Part shown: positions 265 through 31,594 of the stretch, piece by piece
Layout: every line of letters starts with the position of its first letter
Numbering within the stretch: position 1 is the first letter of the stretch
Source: Candidatus Saccharimonadota bacterium
Lineage (GTDB): Bacteria; Patescibacteriota; Gracilibacteria; BD1-5; UBA6164
NCBI GenBank assembly: GCA_965227835.1
Contig: OZ245768.1
Span: forward strand, 1,290,001 to 1,322,000
Direction of reading: 5' to 3'
Length of the DNA: 32,000 bases
Translations under genes and position numbers: made by a program
The notes under the pieces: generated by a model
The model's database searches: none
Seen by the model: the letters and a program-made list of their open reading frames with translations, nothing else
What the model was told of the DNA's origin: nothing

Positions 265-3200
265 ATGTCAGAAAATTTGTGATATAGAGAATCAAGAAAA
301 ACTCAAAAAAACAAGGATTTTATACAATCATTAGAAAAAAGCTTAGAAGATTCAAATATAGATACTAGAGAAGCTAAAGAGCTGAGAGAAAAATATGAAG
401 AAATAAGAGAGGCTAGAAATCAAATATTAGCAATAACAAAGGATGAACTGAAATCTCTTGCTAGATGATTAAACATTGATGAAAACTCTAGTTTGGGAAA
501 AACTTTAAATAAGCTTATAGAAAAATCCCAAGATCAGGGTGAGGTAATTAGCAGTCCATCAGCAAGCACTGATGCAGGAATTGCTACCCCTGCACAGGAT
601 ATTACTAATACAGAAAGTATAGAAGATGGGAAAGCGTCTGAACTAGCAAAATGAATAGATTGAGTAGAGTATGACACAGACACAAATAATTATATTTACA
701 AATGAGAAAGAATAAGCAGAGATGATATTGAGAATAAAGATGATCTTATAAACTGGGTAGAAGAAATTGAAGATAAGATAGCCTTAGATTTAGCAAACTG
801 AATAAACTGAGTGGAATATGATGAAAATGGAAATCAATATAAATATAAATTAGAAGAAATAAACAGAGGTGAAATTGAAAATGAAAATGATTTAGAAGCT
901 TGGATAGACAACATAGAAGACAAAATAGCATTGGAACTAGCAAAATGAATAGATTGAGTGGAGTATAACAGAGATTCAAATATTTATACTTACAAATGAG
1001 AAGAAATAAACAGAGATGAAATTCAAGGTGAAGATGAGCTAAAAGCTTGGATTGAAGAGATGGATAAGAAAATAAGAGAATGATTAATAGCAGATTTTTG
1101 AATTGATGAAAACATATCAGAAATAGACAGTTTGGATAAAAGTTTTGCTGAATATGGTTTAGAGGGAGGGATTTTTAATCTTTTAGAAAAATATAATAGC
1201 TATATAGAAGATAAACTATCTTGATTAAAACCTGAAATTTTAGAAAAAATAAAACAATCTATATGAATAAGAATTCTAAATCTTAGGGAATCTATAAATG
1301 AAATGGAAGAAAGAATAGATAGCCTATGAGAACAAGATCAAAAGAGAAACTATCGTTGGATACTAAATTCTAAAATTCAAGAACATTTTTCTGAAATAAA
1401 CAACAAAATACTTCCAAGCGCATTATTATTACTTCAACATACAAATTGAAATATAGATTATGATAAAATAGATTTGAAAAGACCTGTATATTCTAGTCCT
1501 AAAGGACCCTGAGATTTGGGTGGGCAGACTATTTTGAGATATGAAGAATTGAGCACAAAGAAAAAAGAAGAAAAAATAAAATACAAGATAGCACAAATAG
1601 AAGAAATGTTTTCAGCTAGTTTAGATTATAATTGAGAGTTTGATGAATTTTGAATAGAAACATTTAATCAGTCAGGTACTTTGGAAATAGATGAAGAAGA
1701 AGATTTGGCTATTTTTAAAGGTATATGATGAGATAGGGATTCTTTGGCAGATATTGATTTTTTAAATGAAGCGGACAAAGAAATTGAAACTGAGGCTACT
1801 ATCGCATATTTTTCATATGTACTTATTTGTTTGGTTCCCTATATATGAGCTGCTGCAGCTGTTCCTAGTGATTTAGTAGATTTATTCTCAAATGAAGAAT
1901 GAGTATCAAAAATTTTAAGAGAGATGTGAGCTATAAATGAGGATTACAGAATGGAGAAATCTCTAATTGATAATATTTTATGATGAGTTTGATTACTATT
2001 AACGGTTATATGATTGCAATGAATTGCTAGATGAAAAAAACTTGTTAAAGCTTGAAGCAAATTAGATAAAATTTGAGCATGAAGAATAGAAGATTGATTG
2101 ATACAAATGTGAGAAAAAATGTGACTGTCTCAAGAAAAATTGAATAAAGTGTTATCATTTTTTAGAAAAGAAAATATGAGTACGGCAGTTATTTCAAATT
2201 GAGAAGATTTAAGAGTATTTTCTAAATTTGAGAGTTTAGATGAGCTTTGAAAGAAAGATTTTTTATCTAAGAGGCTGGAAGAATTGGAAAAAAATAGATC
2301 TAACCTAAATCCGGAAGAACTAGAGGAAGTAAATATGATACAAAAAATATTAGATGAGGGTAATCTATGAACTGATTCAAAACTACTTAATGAATATATA
2401 CAAAAGTATGTAATTCCTAAAGTTAAATTAGAAAACTTAGCTAGACTTAATAATCTATATCCTAAATGAACTAAAATTCAATTTAAACGCAATGAAAGTA
2501 GATGAAGGAATAATGGTGTAGAAGTAACCTATACTGGAGAAGTTAAGGAAATTAATCAAGATTGAAAATTAGTAGTATGGTGAGAAGTTCCTACTAGACC
2601 CTGAAAAAAAACAAGGTTTTTACTAAATCCTAATGATTGAAGTATAAGAATAATGGAGGATTCACTTGATATTGGAAAAATAGATGAGTGAGTTGCTATC
2701 ATGGAAAAGTTAATGCAAAAATTTCCCTCTTGAAGCAAAGTTGAATTTACTAATCAATCATGAAAAATCCTAAGAGGTGAAATTGTATGACACAATATTA
2801 ACTGACATGTAAAAATATGGGTAAAAGACTGAAGCTCTATTTCACAATATAATTCAAAAGGAGAGGATCTTAATAGTATAAAAATAATAGAAAGAATACC
2901 TTACAAAAAAGATTTTAATGTATGAGATAGAGTTACTATAGAAACATTATATGGAGAATGAGAAAGAAGTATAATTCGTTCTTGAGAAGTTTTAGAAATA
3001 TTTCCTGATTGAAAAGTATTAATTAGAAGAGAATCATCTAGTAATCAGCAATGAGCAAAAATACAGATAGATTTAAATGACCCAAATACGAGAATATCTA
3101 AAATAAGACAGTTTGAAGAAATTGAATATCCTAAGTTACTGGATAGGCTTAAAAATAATATCTTGCAAATAACAGATATTAATTTGAGGAATAAAATAAA

Positions 3201-4632
3201 GGTGCTAATAATTACACCTTTTGAAAAATTGAAAGATCTCAAAGATTTTAGCTCAAAAACTGTAAATCAACTATTAGAAAATGTTTATAAAGTAGAGAAA
3301 TTACTGTTAAATAATTGATCAGATCAAACAAATAATTTATTAAATTCTCTTATTTCTATTAAATCATTTATAAAATGAATTTTAGATAAAAATTCAAAAA
3401 TAATGTGAGTAAAACCGGAAATGATAGAGAAACTTAAAGTCCTAAAAGTTTGAGATGCTATAGAGGTATGATGACAAAAAAACATAATATCCAATATAGA
3501 TTGAAACACAATTGAACTTAGGGTTATTTTACCTGATGACACTATTCTTAAAGATAAAATTAATTTAGATGATTTGGGGAATAACCTTGAATATAGATGG
3601 TTGAATAATGCTAATATTACAAAATCTAGTGATGAAGAAAGGCTATTTAACTCGATATCTGCAGTAGATTCTTTTGAAGAATTATTTAGTACGATAAGAG
3701 CCAATTGAAAAATATGAAAATATAGTCCTAGCCGTATAATTTCTATTATTAAAAAATATGAAAACTGAGAAATAACTGAAATAAATAGAATAACTAGACA
3801 ATGATGACTTAGAGATAAGGTTGCTAGACTAAAAAACTATGATTTTATTAGAGATGATGATACTTTAGCTAAATTATGGCCTCGCGGATTAGATAGTATT
3901 ACTAAACAATGAGCTGTTTGAAATTGTTATTTTGTAGCATCCCTAAATGCTCTTAAAAATCATCCTAGAGGATGAGAAATGCTAAAAAATATGATAAAAG
4001 AAACAAAAGACTGATGGATAGTAAAATTTGCATGACATAATGAAACAATAAAAATAACTAAAAGTTCTTTGGATGAAATGGCTGAAGCAAGACAGTCTAG
4101 TGATAATATATGAGATATAATAATTGAAAGAGCTCATGCTAGAGTTGTAAATAAACAAAGATGATGAAACTCATGAGAAACCATGATGGTTAGAAGGAAT
4201 GGTGATTTAATTCATTCGTGAGGTCAAATGAAGGATACTATAAGATTGTTTTTTTGAAATAGATCTGAAAATACACTATATTATTATAGCGAAGGTAGAA
4301 TTGTGAAATCAAAAGATTTTGAAAGAAGTGAATATATGGCAAGTAAATCCTTAAGAACAATTTTAAGTCGTAATTTGGATGTTGATAATCTAATCACTAT
4401 ATCATCTAAATTTGAAAAATGAAAAACAGATAAATATAGTTATCCTTGAACAGATTTTTATTGAAGAGAAATAAAGATTGTTTACGGGCATGCATATAGT
4501 GTAAGTAATTTTAGTTATAAAGAATGATGGTTTTCCGTAGTTAATCCTCATGATTCTTGAACTGAAATTAGGTTAAAAATAGATGATTTTGATAAATATT
4601 TTAGTGGTATAACTGTATCAAAGTTTAGATAA
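265..4632 (+). CDS. Giant 1455-aa protein. It has an N-terminal charged coiled-coil-like region with 3x49-aa repeats, two central hydrophobic helices, and a C-terminal calpain-like (peptidase C2 / papain-fold) cysteine protease domain.
   Basis: I translated every codon by hand. The frame has no TAA or TAG from 265 to the TAA at 4630 and contains 84 in-frame TGA. C-terminal motifs are QGAVGNCYFVASLNAL (Cys codon 3925-3927), YGHAYSV (His 4489-4491) and VVNPHDSG (Asn 4543-4545), matching the calpain Cys/His/Asn triad context. Hydrophobic segments are IAYFSYVLICLVPYIGAAAAV (about 1801-1863) and LIDNILGGVGLLLTVIGLQGIA (about 1963-2028). An alternative in-frame ATG lies at 217. No Shine-Dalgarno. 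Confidence 0.85.
643..1083 (+). repeat. Three tandem in-frame 147-bp (49-aa) coding repeats inside the giant ORF.
   Basis: Units start at 643, 790 and 937. The unit consensus is LAKGIDGVEY-x-Y-YK-EEI-R-EIE-EDDL-AWIEEIEDKIAL. The copies have diverged at both nucleotide and protein level. Confidence 0.85.
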
Positions 4633-4653
4633 ATTATATTTGTTATAAAAATA

Positions 4654-5526
4654 CTACCCCAACTCTCAAACCAACCTACACCAATAATCTATATCCAAAT
4701 CTTCAGCTCTAGAATTTAAATCTATTCATATATTTTCAAATACCCCAATTAAAAAACTTTTCTCATAACCTCAATTTTCCAAATTTTTAATAAGTTTTTT
4801 ACGAGAAGAAGAAAATCAGATTTTTACAACTCTTAAAAAAAACTCATCAGATAAGCTATTATACTTATCATGAGTTTTAAAAACTATGACACTTGATTCT
4901 ACTTTTGGTTTTGGTATGAAATTATCAGGGGAAACTTTTATTTTTTCCTCGGCATAAGCTTTTTTAGCAACCATCAAAGACAAAACAGAACTTTTGATTT
5001 TTCTATCACTTGATTCTGTTTTTTTTTCGAAAGAATACGAATACTTTTGGCATAATATCCTATCTCATACATCTTTTTGCATAAGTATAACCATATACTC
5101 AGGGCATTTTTTTAAATCATACAAAAAATGTCTTATTATAGGACTTGTAATATAATATGGGATATTTGATATTACTGAATATTTATATATATAACTTAAA
5201 TTTGATTCTCCCAGATTGTATTTTAACACATCCTCATTTTTTATTTCAAAACAAACCCCCTCAGTATCTAACTCTTTTAATCTTACTCTCTCATCCAAAA
5301 TAGAAACCATATTTTTATCAACCTCAACCAAATTTAAACTCAAAGGTTTTTTATAAAGTATCTTTTCCGTCAAACTTCAATAACCAGGTCAAACCTCAAC
5401 TATATTTTCATCTCTTATATTAATCAGTTCACATATATCCTCAAGTATTTTATCGTTAATCAAAAAATTTTGCCCCAAACTTTTTTTTGCTTTTATTCTG
5501 TATTTTTTAATCAAATCTAGGCTCAT
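4654..5526 (-). CDS. rsmA: 16S rRNA (adenine1518/1519-N6)-dimethyltransferase RsmA/KsgA, 290 aa.
   Basis: Motifs seen: GQNFLIND, EVGPGYGSLT (both Gly at 5377-5379 and 5389-5391 are TGA), SNIPYYITSPII, and a C-terminal GIDLNSRAEDL. The frame is scanned clear of TAA/TAG from 4657 to 5064 and from 5374 to 5523, and the segment between is the supplied 5065..5373 ORF. It ends at TAG 4654-4656. Confidence 0.9.
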
Positions 5527-5531
5527 ATCTC

Positions 5532-6671
5532 TTAATCTACATAAATATATCAAACAATTCTCCTATCCTTTAAATCTATTTTTCTGTAAGTAACTTCATT
5601 TAGTTTTTTATAATTCATATCAGATACTATCATATAGTTATCTTTTACCTCCATAACTATAGCTACATGACCATATCTAAGATTATATCATCTACCAGCA
5701 AGAGAAACTATTGCTCATAGTTCTGGTTTAAAACCTCTACCATAAACTACCTTATGTCATTTTGCAGCAGCATTTCTCATCCATTGATTAGCATTTCCCC
5801 TCCAATTAACATTTTTATAAGAAGCAACATAATAGGTACAATTTCCCCATACTCCTGAAAATGGTTTTCTCCATACCAGTTTGTATACTCCTTTAGAATT
5901 TGTATATTGGTTACCTATATATTGTTTATTTTGGTCAACTTTACTATATCTTTTGTTTACAGGAGCTTTATATACTGGTTTTTTTATTATAATTTTTTTA
6001 GCTCCTGGTAGGAAGATTTCTTCTCATATTTTTAATTTTCTTTGCTCATCAAAATCATTGAATTCAAGTATACTATTCTTATCTATTTTATACTTATTTG
6101 CTATGGCTAATAGAGAATCTCATGACTTTATTTTATAAGGAATACCTGAAACAGGAGGGATTTTCAATTGTTTTCAAGGGTTTATTGTATCTGTTTTTAA
6201 ATCATTGTATATCCTTATAGTATCCCAAGAAATACCAAACTTAGATGCTATCTCTGATATTGTATCTCATTCTTCTACCTTATATGTTAAAATTTCATTG
6301 GTTCATTTATAATCCCTGTCTTCGCTTAAAATACCTGTGTCCATTAAAAACTCATCTTGAGTTTCTATAAAGCTATCTCAAGAAGATATTTCTTCTTCTC
6401 TTAAATAATAGGAGCTATAAGTTCAAAGTATTGAGTCTTCATCTATATATCATCTGTAAAAATCAATCTCATTATTGTTATGAATAATTGATGCAAACAT
6501 AGGGTAAAGAGGGATTGATATGAGTAGACAAAGTATAATTATTCTATGAATTAAATTATTCCTCTTAAAAACACTAAAAATTCTGTTTTTTAGTGTTATA
6601 TTTTCTTTTATAGATCTAGAATGTCTATCTATCCTAGCTCTTATATTCACTTTATGTTGATTTTTTCCCAA
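5532..6671 (-). CDS. Membrane-anchored peptidoglycan hydrolase, 379 aa, with an N-terminal TM anchor, two LysM domains and a C-terminal CHAP/NlpC-P60-type amidase-peptidase domain.
   Basis: The TM segment is LIHRIIILCLLISIPLYPMFASII. LysM-like segments are YKVEEGDTISEIASKFGISWDTIRIYN and YKIKSGDSLLAIANKYKIDKNSILEFN. CHAP-like motifs are GNCTYYVASYKNVNWRGNANQW and RYGHVAIV. The start is TTG at 6669-6671, the only start-type codon after the upstream in-frame stop at 6681-6683. I scanned the frame by hand down to the TAA at 5532-5534. Confidence 0.75.
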
Positions 6672-15797: not shown

Positions 15798-17945
15798 CTA
15801 ATCCTCTTCAGGAAGTTTAAATCATCTTTCTTCTCTAATACTTGAGGCAACATTTGTAGGAACTTCTTCATAATGATCAAACTCCATAGAATAAGTAGCT
15901 CTTCATTGAGAAGCAGATCTAAGTTCGGTCATATATCCAAACATTTCTGATAAAGGTACAAAAGCAGAAACTATCTTTGCTTGTCCTCTATCTCACATCT
16001 CTTCTATTCTACCCCTCTTAGAATTTATTTGCCCTATTATATCACCCATATATTCTTCAGGAGTATTTACCTCTATTTTCATTATTGGTTCAAGTAAAAC
16101 AGCTTGAGCTTTTTTACATGCATCCCTAAAGGCTTTAGATGCAGCTATTTTAAATGCAAGTTCACTAGAATCCACGTCATGAAACGATCAAAATGTAAGA
16201 GTAGCTTTTATATCAACCATAGGATAACCAGCTACGAAACCTCTAGCATAAGCTTCTTTTAGACCTTTTTCAACCCCTGGAATATACTCTTTAGGGATTA
16301 TTCATCAAACTATTTTATTTACAAACTTATTTGTAGCCTTTTCTTTTAACTCATTTTTATTATCCTCTTCATCCATTTCCTTGTAAGGTTCAAATGTAAT
16401 CACTACATGACCATACTGTCCTCTACCTCAAGTTTGTTTTGAATATTTATGTTCTACATCACTAGCAGTAACTTTTATTGTTTCTCTATAAGATACTTGA
16501 GGTGATCATACATTACATTCTACATTGAATTCTCTTTTCATCCTATCAACTATTATATCTAAATGTAGCTCTCACATACCCGATATAATGGTTTGTCATG
16601 TTTCTTCATCTGTTTTAACTCTAAAACTTGGATCCTCTTCAGCAAGTTTACTAAGAGCTATACCCATTTTTTCTTGATCTCATTTTGATTTTGGTTCTAC
16701 TGATATAGATATAACTGGTTCTGGAAATTCAATAGACTCTACTAAAAATTTGTCATTCATATCACATAGTGTATCTCATGTCTTTGTTCATTTTAATCAA
16801 ACTATAGCTCATATATTACCTGTTGTAATTTCAGAAATTTCCTCCCTAGAATTAGAATGCATTTGTAAAAGTCTACCAACTCTTTCTTTGCTACCTGTAG
16901 TTGAATTGTATACATAGGATCATGATTTAAGGCTACCTGCATATACTCTGGTAAAACAAAGTGTTCCCACGAAGGGATCAGTAGCTATTTTGAAAGCTAT
17001 TGCAGCCAAAGGAGAATCGTTTGAAACATTTATTTCTTTTATTATTTCACCTGTATCTACATTTTTTACACCAAGTTTTCATTCATTTACATCAAGGGGT
17101 CATGGTAAAAATTCAACAGCAGCATCTATAACCATTTGTACTCAAATATTTTGTAAAGCAGAACCACATGTAACTGCATATAGTTCATTGTTACATACTC
17201 ATTTTCTAAGTCATTTTTTTATTTCTTCTACACTTAATTCTCAAGAATCAAAATATTTTTCCATCAAAGCATCATCCTGTTCTGCAACCTTTTCTATCAA
17301 TTCAAGTCTTAGAGCTTCACATTTATCTTTTATAGAGCTTGGAATTTCTATTTCTGTTATTTTTTCACCAGAATCTCACTGGAAATGATAAGCTTTCATT
17401 TCTATTATATCAACTATTCACTCAAAGGTTTCAGCTGAACCTATTGGGTAAGCTATAGCAACTACTTTGTTTCAAGCAAGTCTTTTCTTGATAGAGTCCA
17501 TAGTCATATCAAAATCTCAACCCATTTTGTCCATCTTATTTACAAAAGCTATTCTAGGAACTGAATATTTATCTGCTTGTTTCCATACAGTTTCTGATTG
17601 AGGTTCTACTCATTGAGATGCATCAAAAACAGCAACTCATCCATCTAATACCCTAAGAGACCTTTCTACCTCAATAGTGAAATCCACATGCCCTGGAGTA
17701 TCTATTATATTTATTTGATGATCTTTCCAAAAAGCTGTAGTAGCCGCAGATGTAATTGTAATACCTCTTTCTTTTTCTTGAGCCATCCAGTCCATTGTTC
17801 ATTCTCAATCATGGGTTTCTCCTATTTTGTGTATTTTTCATGTGTAGAAAAGTATTCTTTCTGTGGTAGTTGTTTTTCAAGCATCTATATGCGCAATTAT
17901 TCATATATTTCTCACATTTTCTAGAGGAATTTTTGCTTTGGTCAT
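15798..17945 (-). CDS. fusA: Elongation factor G, 715 aa.
   Basis: The N-terminus reads [70 protein letters not shown]...DTPGHVDFT. Both P-loop glycines are TGA (17901-17903 and 17877-17879). The full frame is scanned and ends at TAG 15798-15800. No rpsL or rpsG lies upstream and tuf is about 12.5 kb away. Confidence 0.92.
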
Positions 17946-24489: not shown

Positions 24490-26811
24490 TTAAATATTTT
24501 TTTGTATTTCTATTTTATATATTTCCAAAAGATCACCCTCTTCTACATCCGTTTTTCATTCGAATCTTATTCAACATTCCAAAGGTCATTCTAACTCCTT
24601 TACCTCTTCTATTCATTGCTTTAAAGAAGTTATTTTTCAATCTAATATTTTTTTATCTTTTCTAATAACCCTTGCAAGACAATTTGACTCTATTTTGCTA
24701 TCTTTTTTTAGATCAATTCACAAAATAAGGAATTTTTTATCTGTGTAAAACTTAGCTAGCACGCTTGCATTTCAAAGGAAAATCTCTATCTCTCTTGGGT
24801 CAAGCATTCACGATACTATTTTTTCTATTTTTTCTGTTATATGATATATAATTTTAGAATTTATATATGTTACATCAGATCTTTCAAGAATAGTTTTTGC
24901 ACTTGATACTATATCTATATTGAATCAAACAAGTACAGCTTCAGATGAATTAACCATCAACACATCTCATTCGGTTATATTTCAAACTCAAGAATGAATA
25001 ATAGCTATATTTGTCTCATCTGTTGATAATTTTAGTATAGAAGATTTTATGGCCTCTAAACTACCATTTGTATCAGCTTTAATTAAAACTTTTAATTGTT
25101 TCAAATTACCCGCTTTTATTTTAGACATCAAAACTTCCAATCAGGAAGATTTATTTTTTTCTTCTTGTTTTGTTAGTTCTCTATACTCATCAGCTTTACT
25201 TTTAGCAATACTAGAAGATGATACTACTTGTAATATGTCTCATCAATTTACCACCTTGTCAAGTCATATTATAAGTACAGGATCTCAAGGTAGTGATTTT
25301 AATAGTCATATGTTCTCAAAGTTTTTCATCACTTTTACTTTTCAAAAAGAATCATTACAGACTACATTATCACCTTTGTTTATAGTTCAAGTATTTACTA
25401 GGACTGTAGAAACAGGTCAAAGTGATTTATCAAGATGAGATTCAATTACTGTAGCAACTCAATTTCTATTTGGGTTTGCTTTTAATTCTTTTATTTCAGC
25501 TACCAAAAGTAAGATTTCCAAAAGATCATCTATTCAAAATCAAGTTTTTGCCGATACAGGTACTACTGGAGTATCTCCTCACCAATCTTCAGGAGTAAGA
25601 CCATTTTCAGATAATTGTCATTTAACATGATCGGGGTTAGCTCCTTGTTTATCCATCTTGTTTATAGCTACTATTACAGGTATTCAAGCTTCTTTTGCAT
25701 GTGATATTGATTCTAAAGTTTGGGGTTTTATACCTTCATCTGCTGCGACAACTAGTACTGCTATATCTGTAGCTTTTGCTCCTCTATATCTCATTATTGT
25801 AAATGCTTCATGTCCTGGTGTATCTAGAAATGTTATTTTTTTGCCATTTTGTTCTACTTGATATGCTCATATACTTTGAGTTATACCTCAAGCTTCTCAA
25901 TCTGCTATTTTAGACTTACGGATACAATCCAAAAGAGATGTTTTTCCATGATCTACATGTCACATTATACTTACAACAGGAGGTCTTTCTTCCAGCTTAG
26001 ATGAATCTTCCTCCACTAATAAGTCTGCTATATTTCAAGACATTAATTCTTTTACACTTACTCAACTTGAATTATCTTTTTGTAATTTTACTTCAAAAGC
26101 TTCTGCTATTATAGAAGCTGAATCAAAATCTATTTTTGAATTTATATTAACCATCATACCATTTTTCATAAACTCAGCTATAAGTTTTACTAAGGGTACT
26201 CAGACTTTTTCTGAAAACTCTTTTAGGCTAAATGTTTCTCATATGGTTATGGTTTCTCAAGTACGAACAGTTAAATTTTGTTTTATATCTTCTACTTTCT
26301 TTTCTTCTTTTTTTGTTTTTATAATTTTTTGAGATCTAGTAAAACTTGTGTCTTCTGGTTCTTTATCATAAAACCTAAACTTTCATCTAGTTTTTGTTTT
26401 TTGAAATGTTTTTTTCTTACTGTTATCTTCTTCTTGATTTTTATTTTTAAAATTTTTATTTTTTAATCATCATCTAGGTTTATCTTCTCAGAAATTTTTT
26501 GGTTTAATTGTTTTATTATTTTTGAAGCTAAATTTAGCTTCTTTTTCAACTTTTTTTTCTTCACCTGTATTTTCTACTACATTTACTTTTTGAATTATCT
26601 TTTTTTTAACTACTTTATTTTCTTTATTTGATTCTTTATTATTCGTAGAAAAATCAGAAGAATTTATTGGTTCTTCTGTCTTTTTTACTACTTTTTTTAT
26701 TACTTTTTTTACTTTAACTTTTTGCGAATCATCTTTTTTTCAAGATTTGTTTTCTCAAGAAGTAGACTTTATAGAGCTATAGTAATCGTCTATTATTTTC
26801 TCTTCAGGCAT
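24490..26811 (-). CDS. infB: Translation initiation factor IF-2, 773 aa.
   Basis: The N-terminal region is Lys-rich. The G domain reads [20 protein letters not shown] (first G is TGA at 25960-25962), then DTPGHEAFT, then NKMDK. The whole frame is scanned for TAA/TAG. No nusA lies upstream. Confidence 0.92.
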
Positions 26812-27029: not shown

Positions 27030-28361
27030 TTAGAATAATTTTGAAGTTTTTAAAAGTTCTTTATATCTTCTTCTAAATCTTTTTTTGTTAAACGAATTTT
27101 CTCTATACAATAAACCTAAAAATAAAAACAATAATATGGTTATGTATGTATATTCAAAAACATGAAGAAACATATTCATTACCAAGACAGAAATTATCAT
27201 TAAAAAAATATAAATATTTCTATATAAGTTCTTGAGAATAAGAAAAAATATATATAAAAATAAGGTCAGATAAACTATTCATCATTCTATAAGTATTTGA
27301 ATAAACCGACTCTCAGGTATATAATACCTATCTGTTTCTAAAGTTATCTCAGATTTTATCACTTTTCTATAAGCCGGACCAGAACTAGCGAGTCATGCTC
27401 AAAATGGTTTTTCATAAAACCTATCAATTCCATTTGCCATTCTAGTAATATGTCCGTTTGTAGAGCCTTCCCTAAAAAATACATTGTAAAATTTATCTTG
27501 AAACATATATGATAAACTAGAGGAAATCAATATAAAACAAATTCAAAAAACTATCATATATTTTTTAAAATACTTAATTAAATATTTATAATTTACAATA
27601 AATAATATAAAAGATGATATTATTATTCCAAGCATTGCGGCTCTGCTATATGTCAAAAAAACAAGACAAAACAAAATTGAAATTCAAATAAAAATAGAAA
27701 AATCTTTAATTTTTTTTCTGTTTATATGAAGAAATATACCACTAAATAAAATTAAAAAATATCCCATAGCCAAAGGACTATCCAAAATTCATTGGAATCT
27801 CCTAATTTGACTAGCCTCAACTCATTGATAAATAGGAACCCCTCATCCAAATCAAAATTCTGCTACCTGAATAGTAAATCAAAACAAACTTAAAATCTCT
27901 TCTCAAACTATAAATTTTACCACAATTCACAAAAATAAACTTATAGATCACCAAATCAAAAACAATCTAAGTAAACTAGATATTTTTTCTTTTATCAAAA
28001 CTCTACCATGTCTAAATATTAGAAATACTACAAATCATAAAAAATCATATCTACCACCATAAATTATACTAGAAAATCAAAGTCAATTTAAAATTGTTAT
28101 TGCCAATCAATAAAAAATAAAGGCAAAAATCAAATAATCTATTAAATCAAACTTTATTTTTTTAATATTTTTAGCGAAGAAATATTCATATAAAAGTGAA
28201 AAAAAAAGAAGAATTAGTACTAATTCTTTTATAAAAAAACCAAAGAAACCAAATCCTATTACTTTATCAAAATAAACCTTTATTACTACATAAAATGGTA
28301 ATATAATTATAAGAAATTTGGTAAGTATAGTAAATAGGTTTGTGTCTTTCAAAGATATCAT
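27030..28361 (-). CDS. O-antigen ligase/polymerase-like (Wzy_C family) polytopic membrane protein, 443 aa.
   Basis: There are about 10 or more hydrophobic helices. Motifs seen: LTYSRAAMLG, a loop GHITRMANGIDRFYEKPFGAGLASSGPAYR, and ESRFIQILIEGGIVYL. The frame is scanned by hand through many TGA, from ATG 28359-28361 to TAA 27030-27032. Confidence 0.6.
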
Positions 28362-28373
28362 AATAAATAAATC

Positions 28374-28811
28374 TTATAGATCAGAAAAATCTGCAGGTAT
28401 ATCTTCTATATTATTATCCTGTATATTTGAAGTTCCATAATTATAATCACTTGCTGCAAATATACTGTTTCAAATTTCTTCTATTTTTTCAAGTATTCTT
28501 GCGGGTTTAGCATATCTTTCTACATCTATTCACAAAAGTCTTCACAGTATAGGGAATAGGAATATAGAAGCTACTGTCATTATCAATCAAAAAACGGCAT
28601 ATCTAATAGTATTTATAGCAGGTTTTATTTTATCTTCTTTTCATCATGATAATATAAGTAAAAGCCCCCCATAAAGCACAAACATTATAGATAAAATTCA
28701 TGCTGTTAATACAAAAATAGATATAACCAATAAAACAAAATCTCAAAATTCCATATTGTTAGAGAATATTGCAGAATTAGTTCATCCAAAAGAACCACTA
28801 GATAAATCCAT
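28374..28811 (-). CDS. Small two-TM protein resembling TrbC/VirB2-type (T4SS pilin-like) proteins common in CPR genomes, 145 aa.
   Basis: The core reads FVLLVISIFVLTAGILSIMFVLYGGLLLILSGGKEDKIKPAINTIRYAVFGLIMTVASIFLF. That is TM1, then GG...SGG, then a basic loop, then an I-YA-GL TM2 pattern. The tail is acidic. The gene ends 12 nt before the ligase-like gene starts. Confidence 0.45.

Positions 28812-30397: not shown

Positions 30398-31594
<1,197 letters not shown>

Follow-up and report, generated by a model that had tools for sequence, protein, structure and literature searches.

We analysed a 32,000-nucleotide (nt) stretch of contig OZ245768.1 (positions 1,290,001 to 1,322,000), the whole of which is referred to below as the window, and focus here on the gene at 265–4632 on its forward strand, which encodes a protein of 1455 amino acids (aa) when translated with genetic code 25. 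We consider it probable, at roughly 60%, that this gene belongs to a family of polymorphic toxins or effectors that is found mainly in organisms with a recoded UGA codon and, as a minority, in organisms using the standard code. An original prediction, made from the letters of the sequence, had described the product as a giant protein that joins a repeat-bearing N-terminus, a central two-helix membrane hairpin and a C-terminal calpain-like cysteine protease in a toxin-like or effector-like layout. Both the protease and the layout stand, and the latter is strengthened by a family whose members carry Zeta-toxin and RelA/SpoT cargo on a common scaffold. What that prediction missed is the main point, namely that the protease is an interchangeable cargo, which is swapped in a near-identical strain.

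The swap was detected by comparing the window with a contig from ENA ERZ25074195 (L001). Over 2665 nt, corresponding to positions 977–3641 of the window, the two show 9 differences and are 99.7% identical. The final 250 nt ahead of nt 3641 match at 100%, and directly afterwards identity drops to ~30%, the level expected at random. The break falls within the codons of a short junction motif, KSSDEERL (aa 1120–1127; 3622–3645, +), with the breakpoint at nt 3641/3642, and a module of ~330 aa is replaced beyond it by an unrelated C-terminus of ~245 aa. By its sequence pattern, this abrupt loss of identity leading into an unrelated C-terminus is the signature of a polymorphic toxin. Neither the alternative C-terminus of L001 nor the neighbouring open reading frame (ORF) of 343 aa has a match in Pfam or NCBIfam or a relative within the family. 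Downstream of the exchanged region, L001 carries, in this order, an incomplete second copy of the ksgA 3′ region with 90% identity, the 343-aa ORF and a full ksgA gene; the duplicated ksgA fragment resembles a scar left behind when a cassette was exchanged with ksgA serving as right-hand homology. The 343-aa ORF has its own start and its own promoter-like region (block 3334–6261 of L001 compared with 3642–4643 of the window). The motif KSS[DN]EERLFN and the small beta-rich domain that precedes it are also kept in two further calpain-cargo relatives, L002 and L003, the cargo identity of which is only 37–38%. When the proteins P0001, the public entry for the window gene, and P0002 are compared, most of the 9 point differences appear to be non-synonymous, with errors possible at the coverage of ~4x.

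To define the family, we carried out an exhaustive phmmer search using residues 471–1455 of P0001 as the query. The 95 significant matches fall into two disjoint classes, 36 proteins that match the scaffold and hairpin only and 58 that match the pre-junction region and protease only. According to BLASTP, nearly all 36 scaffold-only proteins have aa ~265–640 in common with the window protein, and in them the same N-terminal region is joined to different C-termini. Glycine was restored in the regions that follow the hairpin, which were then scanned with Pfam at curated cutoffs. Cargoes above these cutoffs are a Zeta_toxin domain (P0023, E = 8.8e-17), a RelA_SpoT domain (P0024, E = 4.4e-11) and a kinase domain of the ABC1 type (P0028, E = 2.6e-7). 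Further cargoes are a Metallophos domain in P0047, accompanied by an FHA domain and a sub-threshold peptidoglycan-binding match, and, in P0061 and P0031, a calpain-like domain of a second type; for many other C-termini of scaffold proteins Pfam gives no match. Most family members are inflated in tryptophan (4–9%) and are therefore code-4 mistranslations from UGA-recoded organisms, and 8 members have a normal composition and come from standard-code organisms. At the DNA level, a strict pattern for the hairpin had no match in GTDB genomes, and a relaxed pattern matched one of 185,579 GTDB representative genomes, a metagenome-assembled genome (MAG) of Candidatus Gracilibacteria (L009). In JGI metagenomes the hairpin pattern was found in 2 contigs and a pattern for the junction in none. 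A word-indexed search with the full protein returned only the gene itself and one strain variant, since low-complexity words crowded out true relatives, and a word-indexed search with the hairpin alignment had no match and missed the gene itself too.

Several members show further peculiarities. Between scaffold and cargo, many of them (P0008, P0011, P0012, P0013, P0019, P0028, P0030, P0032, P0037, P0048, P0052, P0061, P0072, P0074 and P0075) contain a module of ~60 aa with the pattern AHN[IV]G...Y...EI.EK..IL..AGF...E.R.LM.NGI.G, which is not present in the window protein. A glycine-rich hydrophobic type of C-terminus is common to P0010, P0017 and L009, and a 912-aa ORF with multiple transmembrane (TM) segments (L010, 196–2934, −) is located on the same strand ~50 nt downstream of a member of this type; the glycine-rich subfamily may have another mode of action, a membrane-acting cargo being one example. 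The Zeta-toxin member is split into 166 + 578 aa by an in-frame TAA that is identical in two independent samples (L005, 5767–5769, and L006), and may be a pseudogene, a case of programmed readthrough or a truly split gene. In L003, which has a calpain cargo, an in-frame TAA lies directly before the junction and hydrophobic helix 1 is absent (96–98, 1383–1385). This locus may be a degenerate, truncated or orphan copy, or an assembly error.

The last ~250 aa of the window protein are predicted, from sequence and structural modelling, to form a calpain-like papain-fold cysteine protease with a complete Gln-Cys-His-Asn set. The domain, as delimited by Pfam, alignment and AlphaFold2/Foldseek, is encoded at 3838–4629 (+), and the catalytic set consists of Gln1215 (3907–3909), Cys1221 (3925–3927), His1409 (4489–4491) and Asn1427 (4543–4545), the last three being exactly the residues singled out in the original prediction. 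Peptidase_C2 (PF00648) is the sole notable Pfam match of the protein, scoring 17.7 bits with the full-length sequence and a borderline 23.2 bits (E = 4e-5) with the module alone, relative to a cutoff of 23.8 bits; an NCBIfam scan gave nothing meaningful for the protein. After two relatives with 37–38% identity, P0003 and P0004, had been retranslated with code 25, PF00648 was matched by all three of the close family sequences (best E = 5.1e-7). A profile built from three C-terminal modules ranked calpain-5 top among PDB sequences with the Cys and His motifs aligned, at a non-significant E-value of 0.16. In an alignment of 35 sequences from diverse homologues, Q1215, C1221, H1409, Y1411 and P1428 are invariant and N1427 is at least 90% conserved. 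The AlphaFold2 model of the module derived from this alignment is confident, with a mean predicted local distance difference test (pLDDT) score of 86.8 and a predicted template modelling (pTM) score of 0.84, and its best Foldseek match in the PDB is the catalytic domain of human calpain-8 (E = 6.4e-4, probability 1.00, 307 columns, TM-score 0.42), followed by m-calpain and then by other papain-fold enzymes. The PF00648 matches of the close family sequences, the conserved catalytic residues and the calpain ranking thus bear out the protease assignment, and neither of the grounds for rejection named in the original prediction arose. A Pfam scan of the protein detected no C2-like, penta-EF-hand or other calpain accessory domain.

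The cargo module opens with a helical subdomain (aa 1128–1191; 3646–3837, +; ...ITR..GLR.KV...) that precedes the protease in nearly all homologues and may be a regulatory or substrate-recognition element. This subdomain of ~65 aa, recognisable by IT...GLR.KV, is also located before the protease in homologues from standard-code bacteria, and is duplicated in P0009 and P0011.

The frame at 265–4632 contains 84 TGA triplets, which serve as glycine codons, and TAA or TAG only as the terminal TAA. Translation with table 11 yields no long ORF at this locus because code 25, in which UGA specifies glycine, is in use. The evidence for recoding comes from the elongation factor EF-Tu encoded in the window: when its TGA codons are masked as X and the protein is aligned to solved EF-Tu structures, each alignable X corresponds to Gly in E. 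coli EF-Tu, and the organism therefore reads UGA as Gly. In the protease motif QGAVGNC, both glycines are encoded by TGA and align with the glycines of QGQVGNC in calpain-5. Code 4, in which TGA encodes Trp, was rejected, as EF-Tu and the calpain motif both demand Gly. Many in-frame TGA codons are present in all of the housekeeping genes of the window, which include those for EF-Tu (30398–31594, −), EF-G (15798–17945, −), LepA, PNPase and IF-2 (24490–26811, −), with up to 42 per gene; code 25 applies throughout the window (1–32000), the GC content of which is ~27%. Code 25 is the code of Absconditabacteria/SR1 and Gracilibacteria (PMC8080830). The attribution to SR1/Gracilibacteria put forward in the original prediction is consistent with this code and with the sole named genome match, the Candidatus Gracilibacteria MAG. 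No tRNA-Gly(UCA) was found within the window, where the tRNAs are Gln, Glu, two Met and Leu only. Translation probably starts at the ATG at 265, as two homologues, P0012 and P0084, have their first residue at the corresponding position. In public databases the gene is present only as P0001, a code-4 mistranslation with W in place of G that has neither a name nor domains.

The protein begins with a charged helical leader (aa 1–125; 265–639, +), of which the first ~40 aa are common to P0012 and P0084. On the Kyte-Doolittle scale no segment of the first 60 aa rises above 0.22 and there is therefore no signal peptide, in agreement with the earlier view. The leader is followed by a tandem array of a 49-aa repeat in 2.9 copies (aa 126–265; 640–1058, +), identified by Tandem Repeats Finder as a 147-nt unit, which gives substance to the repeats previously proposed for the N-terminus. 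The length of the array differs between strains, L001 being 78 nt (26 aa) shorter there (~669 in L001 compared with 900–976 in the window). The conserved scaffold of the family, defined by BLASTP and phmmer, occupies aa ~265–640 (~370 aa; 1057–2184, +) and consists of long helices that end in the hairpin. It contains the motifs YRWILNSKIQ..FSEINNKILPSA at 1351–1422 and FLNEADKEIE at 1759–1797, and the motifs found family-wide are YIE..L..L, RWI[IL]N.KI...F..[IV]NNK..PS, G.FDE and LLNE.DK.IE. Neither the scaffold nor the N-terminus matches Pfam or NCBIfam, and a Pfam scan of the whole protein gave no LXG or WXG match at E ≤ 1. The AlphaFold model of the scaffold is all-helical and of moderate confidence (pLDDT 74.3, pTM 0.71) and has no significant fold match in the PDB (best E = 2.8). 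A search of PDB sequences with a scaffold profile likewise gave no significant match and picked up no solved LXG structure.

Hydropathy analysis reveals only two hydrophobic segments in the protein, at aa about 511–535 and 566–590, with a Kyte-Doolittle maximum of 1.86, and the number and position of the two mid-protein helices that had been foreseen are accordingly correct. Helix 1 (aa 511–533; 1795–1863, +) is kept in L002 and in family members, and is separated from helix 2 (aa 567–588; 1963–2028, +) by a conserved acidic loop (1864–1962, +) with the sequence pattern VPSD..DL.S..EG ... YRMEK. Helix 2 is followed by a basic cluster, RGKKLVKAGSKLDK (2029–2070, +), and the net charge runs from −6 before helix 1 through −4 in the loop to +5 after helix 2. 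The linker beyond the hairpin contains three beta-rich segments, R1–R3 (aa 731–799, 819–877 and 883–949; 2455–3111, +), which, on weak evidence from their sequences, are probably small beta-barrel repeats of the SH3/Sm-like kind. The alignments of R1 with R2 and of R1 with R3 beat 299–300 of 300 shuffles (z ~ 4), and the Pfam matches of the segments are non-significant (LSM12_LSM, E = 0.02; SH3_15, E = 0.07). The SH3/KOW-like repeats suspected in the original prediction therefore gain from the shuffles but are not statistically established. A small beta-rich domain, R4 (aa 1060–1114; 3442–3606, +), stands before the junction and is conserved in L002, L003 and P0003.

Downstream of the toxin gene, the convergent ksgA/RsmA gene (RrnaAD; 4654–5553, −) has its own stop 22 nt beyond the stop codon of the toxin gene and there is therefore no room for a downstream immunity gene. 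The calpain-cargo genes in L002, L003 and L008 also have a convergent gene downstream, and the only calpain-cargo relative with a downstream ORF on the same strand is L007 (526 aa, 157 nt away). Two members with other cargoes have close same-strand neighbours. In L004, the gene encoding the RelA_SpoT-cargo protein P0024 is followed after 5 nt by a same-strand HD_4 gene with the hydrolase motif HD...ED; a toxin gene for an alarmone synthetase that is followed by an immunity or antitoxin gene for a hydrolase is an established arrangement. The gene for the Zeta-toxin member P0023 is followed after 10 nt by an ORF encoding 130 aa of acidic character, in two independent samples.

On the upstream side, small helical ORFs that are homologous to each other lie directly before the toxin genes in L004 (2436–2756, +; 106 aa) and L005 (4923–5267, +; 114 aa) and call to mind the chaperones or targeting factors that accompany LXG and Esx effectors. 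In the window, the 264 nt available upstream of the toxin gene contain no ORF. A 145-aa protein with two TM segments, encoded ~24 kb away (28374–28811, −), has a sub-threshold match to PF18895, T4SS_pilin (22.2 vs 26.6 bits), and its gene adjoins that of a Wzy_C O-antigen-ligase-like membrane protein (27030–28361, −). The pilin-like protein could be part of a type IV secretion system (T4SS) in the candidate phyla radiation (CPR), by which the toxin might conceivably be exported. The window also encodes, two genes away from the toxin, a peptidoglycan hydrolase with two LysM domains and a CHAP domain (5532–6671, −), and in L009 the immediate upstream neighbour of the corresponding toxin gene (3770–5743, −) has, by sequence alone, a motif typical of M23 peptidases. 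Such cell-wall hydrolases may be functionally linked to the toxin family.

If the gene encodes a polymorphic toxin, the N-terminal scaffold would serve export and targeting, and the hairpin would insert in a membrane, either that of the producer, as an anchor, or that of the target, as a translocation device. Membrane helices are inserted in a similar manner by prePAAR/TMD effectors of type VI secretion systems (T6SS) and by the translocation domains of colicins and diphtheria toxin. The beta-rich linker would space the parts or bind the envelope, and the C-terminal enzyme would act inside the recipient, in this case by cleaving proteins. Most calpain-cargo members have no immunity gene beside them, which would be accounted for most simply if the protease were harmless to its producer, either because it would be directed at a foreign host or prey or because it would remain latent until delivery. 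Speculatively, this would suit a role against host or prey in a lineage of epibionts; an interaction with the host is plausible, and competitors are equally possible as the target. A bolder version, which we regard as rather unlikely, is that scaffold and hairpin form a new lineage-specific delivery device with which ultra-small epibiotic or predatory Gracilibacteria/Absconditabacteria inject rotating enzymes into host bacteria, the calpain members being host- or prey-directed and the RelA/SpoT and Zeta members kin-directed. Such a device might be self-translocating or might use type IV secretion or pilus machinery of the CPR.

A number of observations weigh against a polymorphic toxin. No immunity-like gene lies beside the gene in the window, nor beside those of the calpain-cargo relatives L002, L003 and L008, and hydropathy, Pfam/NCBIfam and the gene content of the window reveal no signal peptide, secretion-targeting domain or adjacent secretion apparatus. 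The exchange between strains is known from a single contig of low coverage (~4x), L001, and an orphan cassette bearing the junction motif was not found in L001, in the family or in JGI metagenomes, the 343-aa ORF between the two ksgA copies of L001 being devoid of the motif. With respect to the enzyme, the protein itself scores 23.2 bits for Peptidase_C2, slightly under the curated Pfam cutoff of 23.8 bits, its TM-score to calpain in Foldseek does not exceed 0.42, and both AlphaFold2 models were built on the mistranslated sequence with Trp for Gly. The basic cluster after helix 2 suggests, moreover, that the cargo end would be placed in the cytoplasm of the producer if the hairpin inserts there. 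Since export is only inferred, the most serious alternative is an intracellular conflict module, a fused toxin–antitoxin or abortive-infection system in which the scaffold senses phage or envelope stress and the enzyme hits the cytoplasm of its own cell, with no export at all. The lack of a signal peptide, of a known secretion domain and of adjacent secretion genes would suit such a module, as would the cytoplasmic C-terminus favoured by the positive cluster, and the Zeta-toxin and RelA/SpoT-HD pairs are classic toxin–antitoxin modules too. We nevertheless judge it unlikely: calpain-cargo members without an adjacent antitoxin would be hazardous if the toxin were self-targeting, PADLOC assigns the 1455-aa protein to no defence family, and a strain-level swap of the C-terminus at a conserved junction, combined with a variable repeat-bearing N-terminus and linker, is typical of exported toxins.

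The absence of an immunity gene would also suit an extracellular enzyme, and the protein could accordingly be a resident surface or membrane adhesin or ‘feeding’ protease that cuts host surface proteins or proteins of its own envelope without being translocated. Giant membrane proteins are typical of the Absconditabacteria surface and have been proposed to function in host attachment (PMC8080830), and the hairpin as an anchor, the repeats, the beta-rich modules and the peptidoglycan hydrolase genes nearby in the window and in L009 are in keeping with this role. It is made quite unlikely, however, by the cargoes of the sister proteins, as a Zeta toxin and a RelA/SpoT alarmone synthetase make sense only in the cytoplasm and one sister has an HD hydrolase partner that lacks a signal; furthermore, two helices and no signal peptide would leave the large flanks on one side of the membrane, and the charges disfavour a C-terminus on the outside. 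It is very improbable that the calpain-like domain is a self-processing ‘releasing’ peptidase that frees the N-terminal part or the linker. Papain-like domains in polymorphic toxins often have this function (PMC3482391), but here the domain forms the very C-terminal end and has nothing beyond it to release, stands where the sisters carry their Zeta-toxin and RelA/SpoT cargoes and is itself the module that is swapped. The notion that there is no real gene, and that the locus is a chance or degenerate frame full of stops, might draw on the in-frame TGA codons and the failure of table 11 to give an ORF; it has next to no chance of being correct and is already refuted by the glycine code demonstrated in EF-Tu, by the TGA codons in all housekeeping genes of the window, by the existence of 95 homologues and by a confident structure model.

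A polymorphic toxin thus remains our preferred reading, and as a kind of system it is already known; its novelty lies in the delivery-like scaffold, in the calpain-type cargo and in the lineage. In the searchable literature we came across no account of this family or of any toxin from Gracilibacteria/Absconditabacteria. The damage that epibionts and predators of the CPR/Patescibacteria inflict on their bacterial hosts is largely unexplained, and the UGA-recoded lineages have no defined effector repertoire. The family supplies concrete candidates, in the form of a delivery-like module without known relatives and of toxin cargo that has matching immunity in some members, and its calpain-type protease cargo is an addition to the 2012 catalogue of polymorphic-toxin domains. 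Code-4 mistranslation, with Trp for Gly, hides the domain content of these proteins from routine annotation of public databases, and none of the public family entries is named or has a Pfam domain precomputed for its calpain module.

In its architecture, the window protein resembles polymorphic toxin systems such as CdiA, Rhs/YD and LXG (PMC3482391), in which a conserved N-terminus, a repeat linker and a short junction motif are followed by a variable C-terminal enzyme. As in these systems, the same N-terminal region is joined to differing toxin domains (in the 36 scaffold-only proteins), recombination between close strains has exchanged the C-terminus (the window and L001), and sister members carry RelA/SpoT-like, Zeta-like kinase and papain-fold cargo with a downstream neutralising gene. 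RelA/SpoT-like domains were listed among polymorphic-toxin cargo in the 2012 survey, as were nine other papain-fold toxin clades, most of them without assigned immunity proteins (PMC3482391); calpain-type cargo, in contrast, is mentioned 0 times in that survey. The trafficking modules catalogued to date are the signal peptide, TpsA, PAAR/VgrG/Hcp, WXG/LXG/LDXD, MuF, PrsW, MafB, TANFOR and BetaH (PMC9424270), none of which is matched by the scaffold. Also unlike polymorphic toxins, no secretion system is linked to the gene, and the window locus and most calpain-cargo relatives are without an adjacent immunity gene. The protein differs from LXG toxins of the type VII secretion system in that it has no N-terminal LXG or WXG100 domain.

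The similarity to calpains (MEROPS C2, PF00648; calpain-8, 2nqa, and calpain-5, 6p3q) lies in the motifs QG.VGNC[YW]F[VL]A, GHAY[SA]V and NP[HW], which occur in the same order, and in the PDB searches, where calpains rank best by structure as well as by sequence. Identity to calpains is, however, ~11–13%, the TM-score is 0.42 and the Pfam score is borderline, penta-EF-hand, C2-like and other accessory domains are absent, and the protease has a family-specific helical subdomain before it. In another context, N-terminal transmembrane helices have reportedly been described in T6SS effectors of the prePAAR/Rhs and Tse6 type by Quentin and colleagues in 2018 and Ahmad and colleagues in 2020. Hydrophobic helices are common to the window protein and these effectors; in the latter they are part of a soluble exported toxin and presumably enter the membrane of the target, where they would assist the passage of the C-terminal toxin. 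The small helical ORFs directly upstream in L004 and L005 would, if their putative role as chaperones holds, parallel the chaperone genes that are often adjacent to such effectors. The window protein differs in lacking PAAR, Rhs and VgrG and in having its hairpin in the middle of the protein, where a helical domain of 370 aa ends, and to our knowledge a T6SS is not expected in monoderm-like organisms such as these. Compared with RelA/SpoT toxins of the toxSAS/Tas1 type and with Zeta-epsilon systems, which are small stand-alone toxins, the corresponding domains are here C-terminal cargo on a scaffold protein of ~800 aa and the window protein itself is a protease; nevertheless, its sisters bear these same toxin domains and, as with HD_4 in L004, a gene on the same strand directly downstream.

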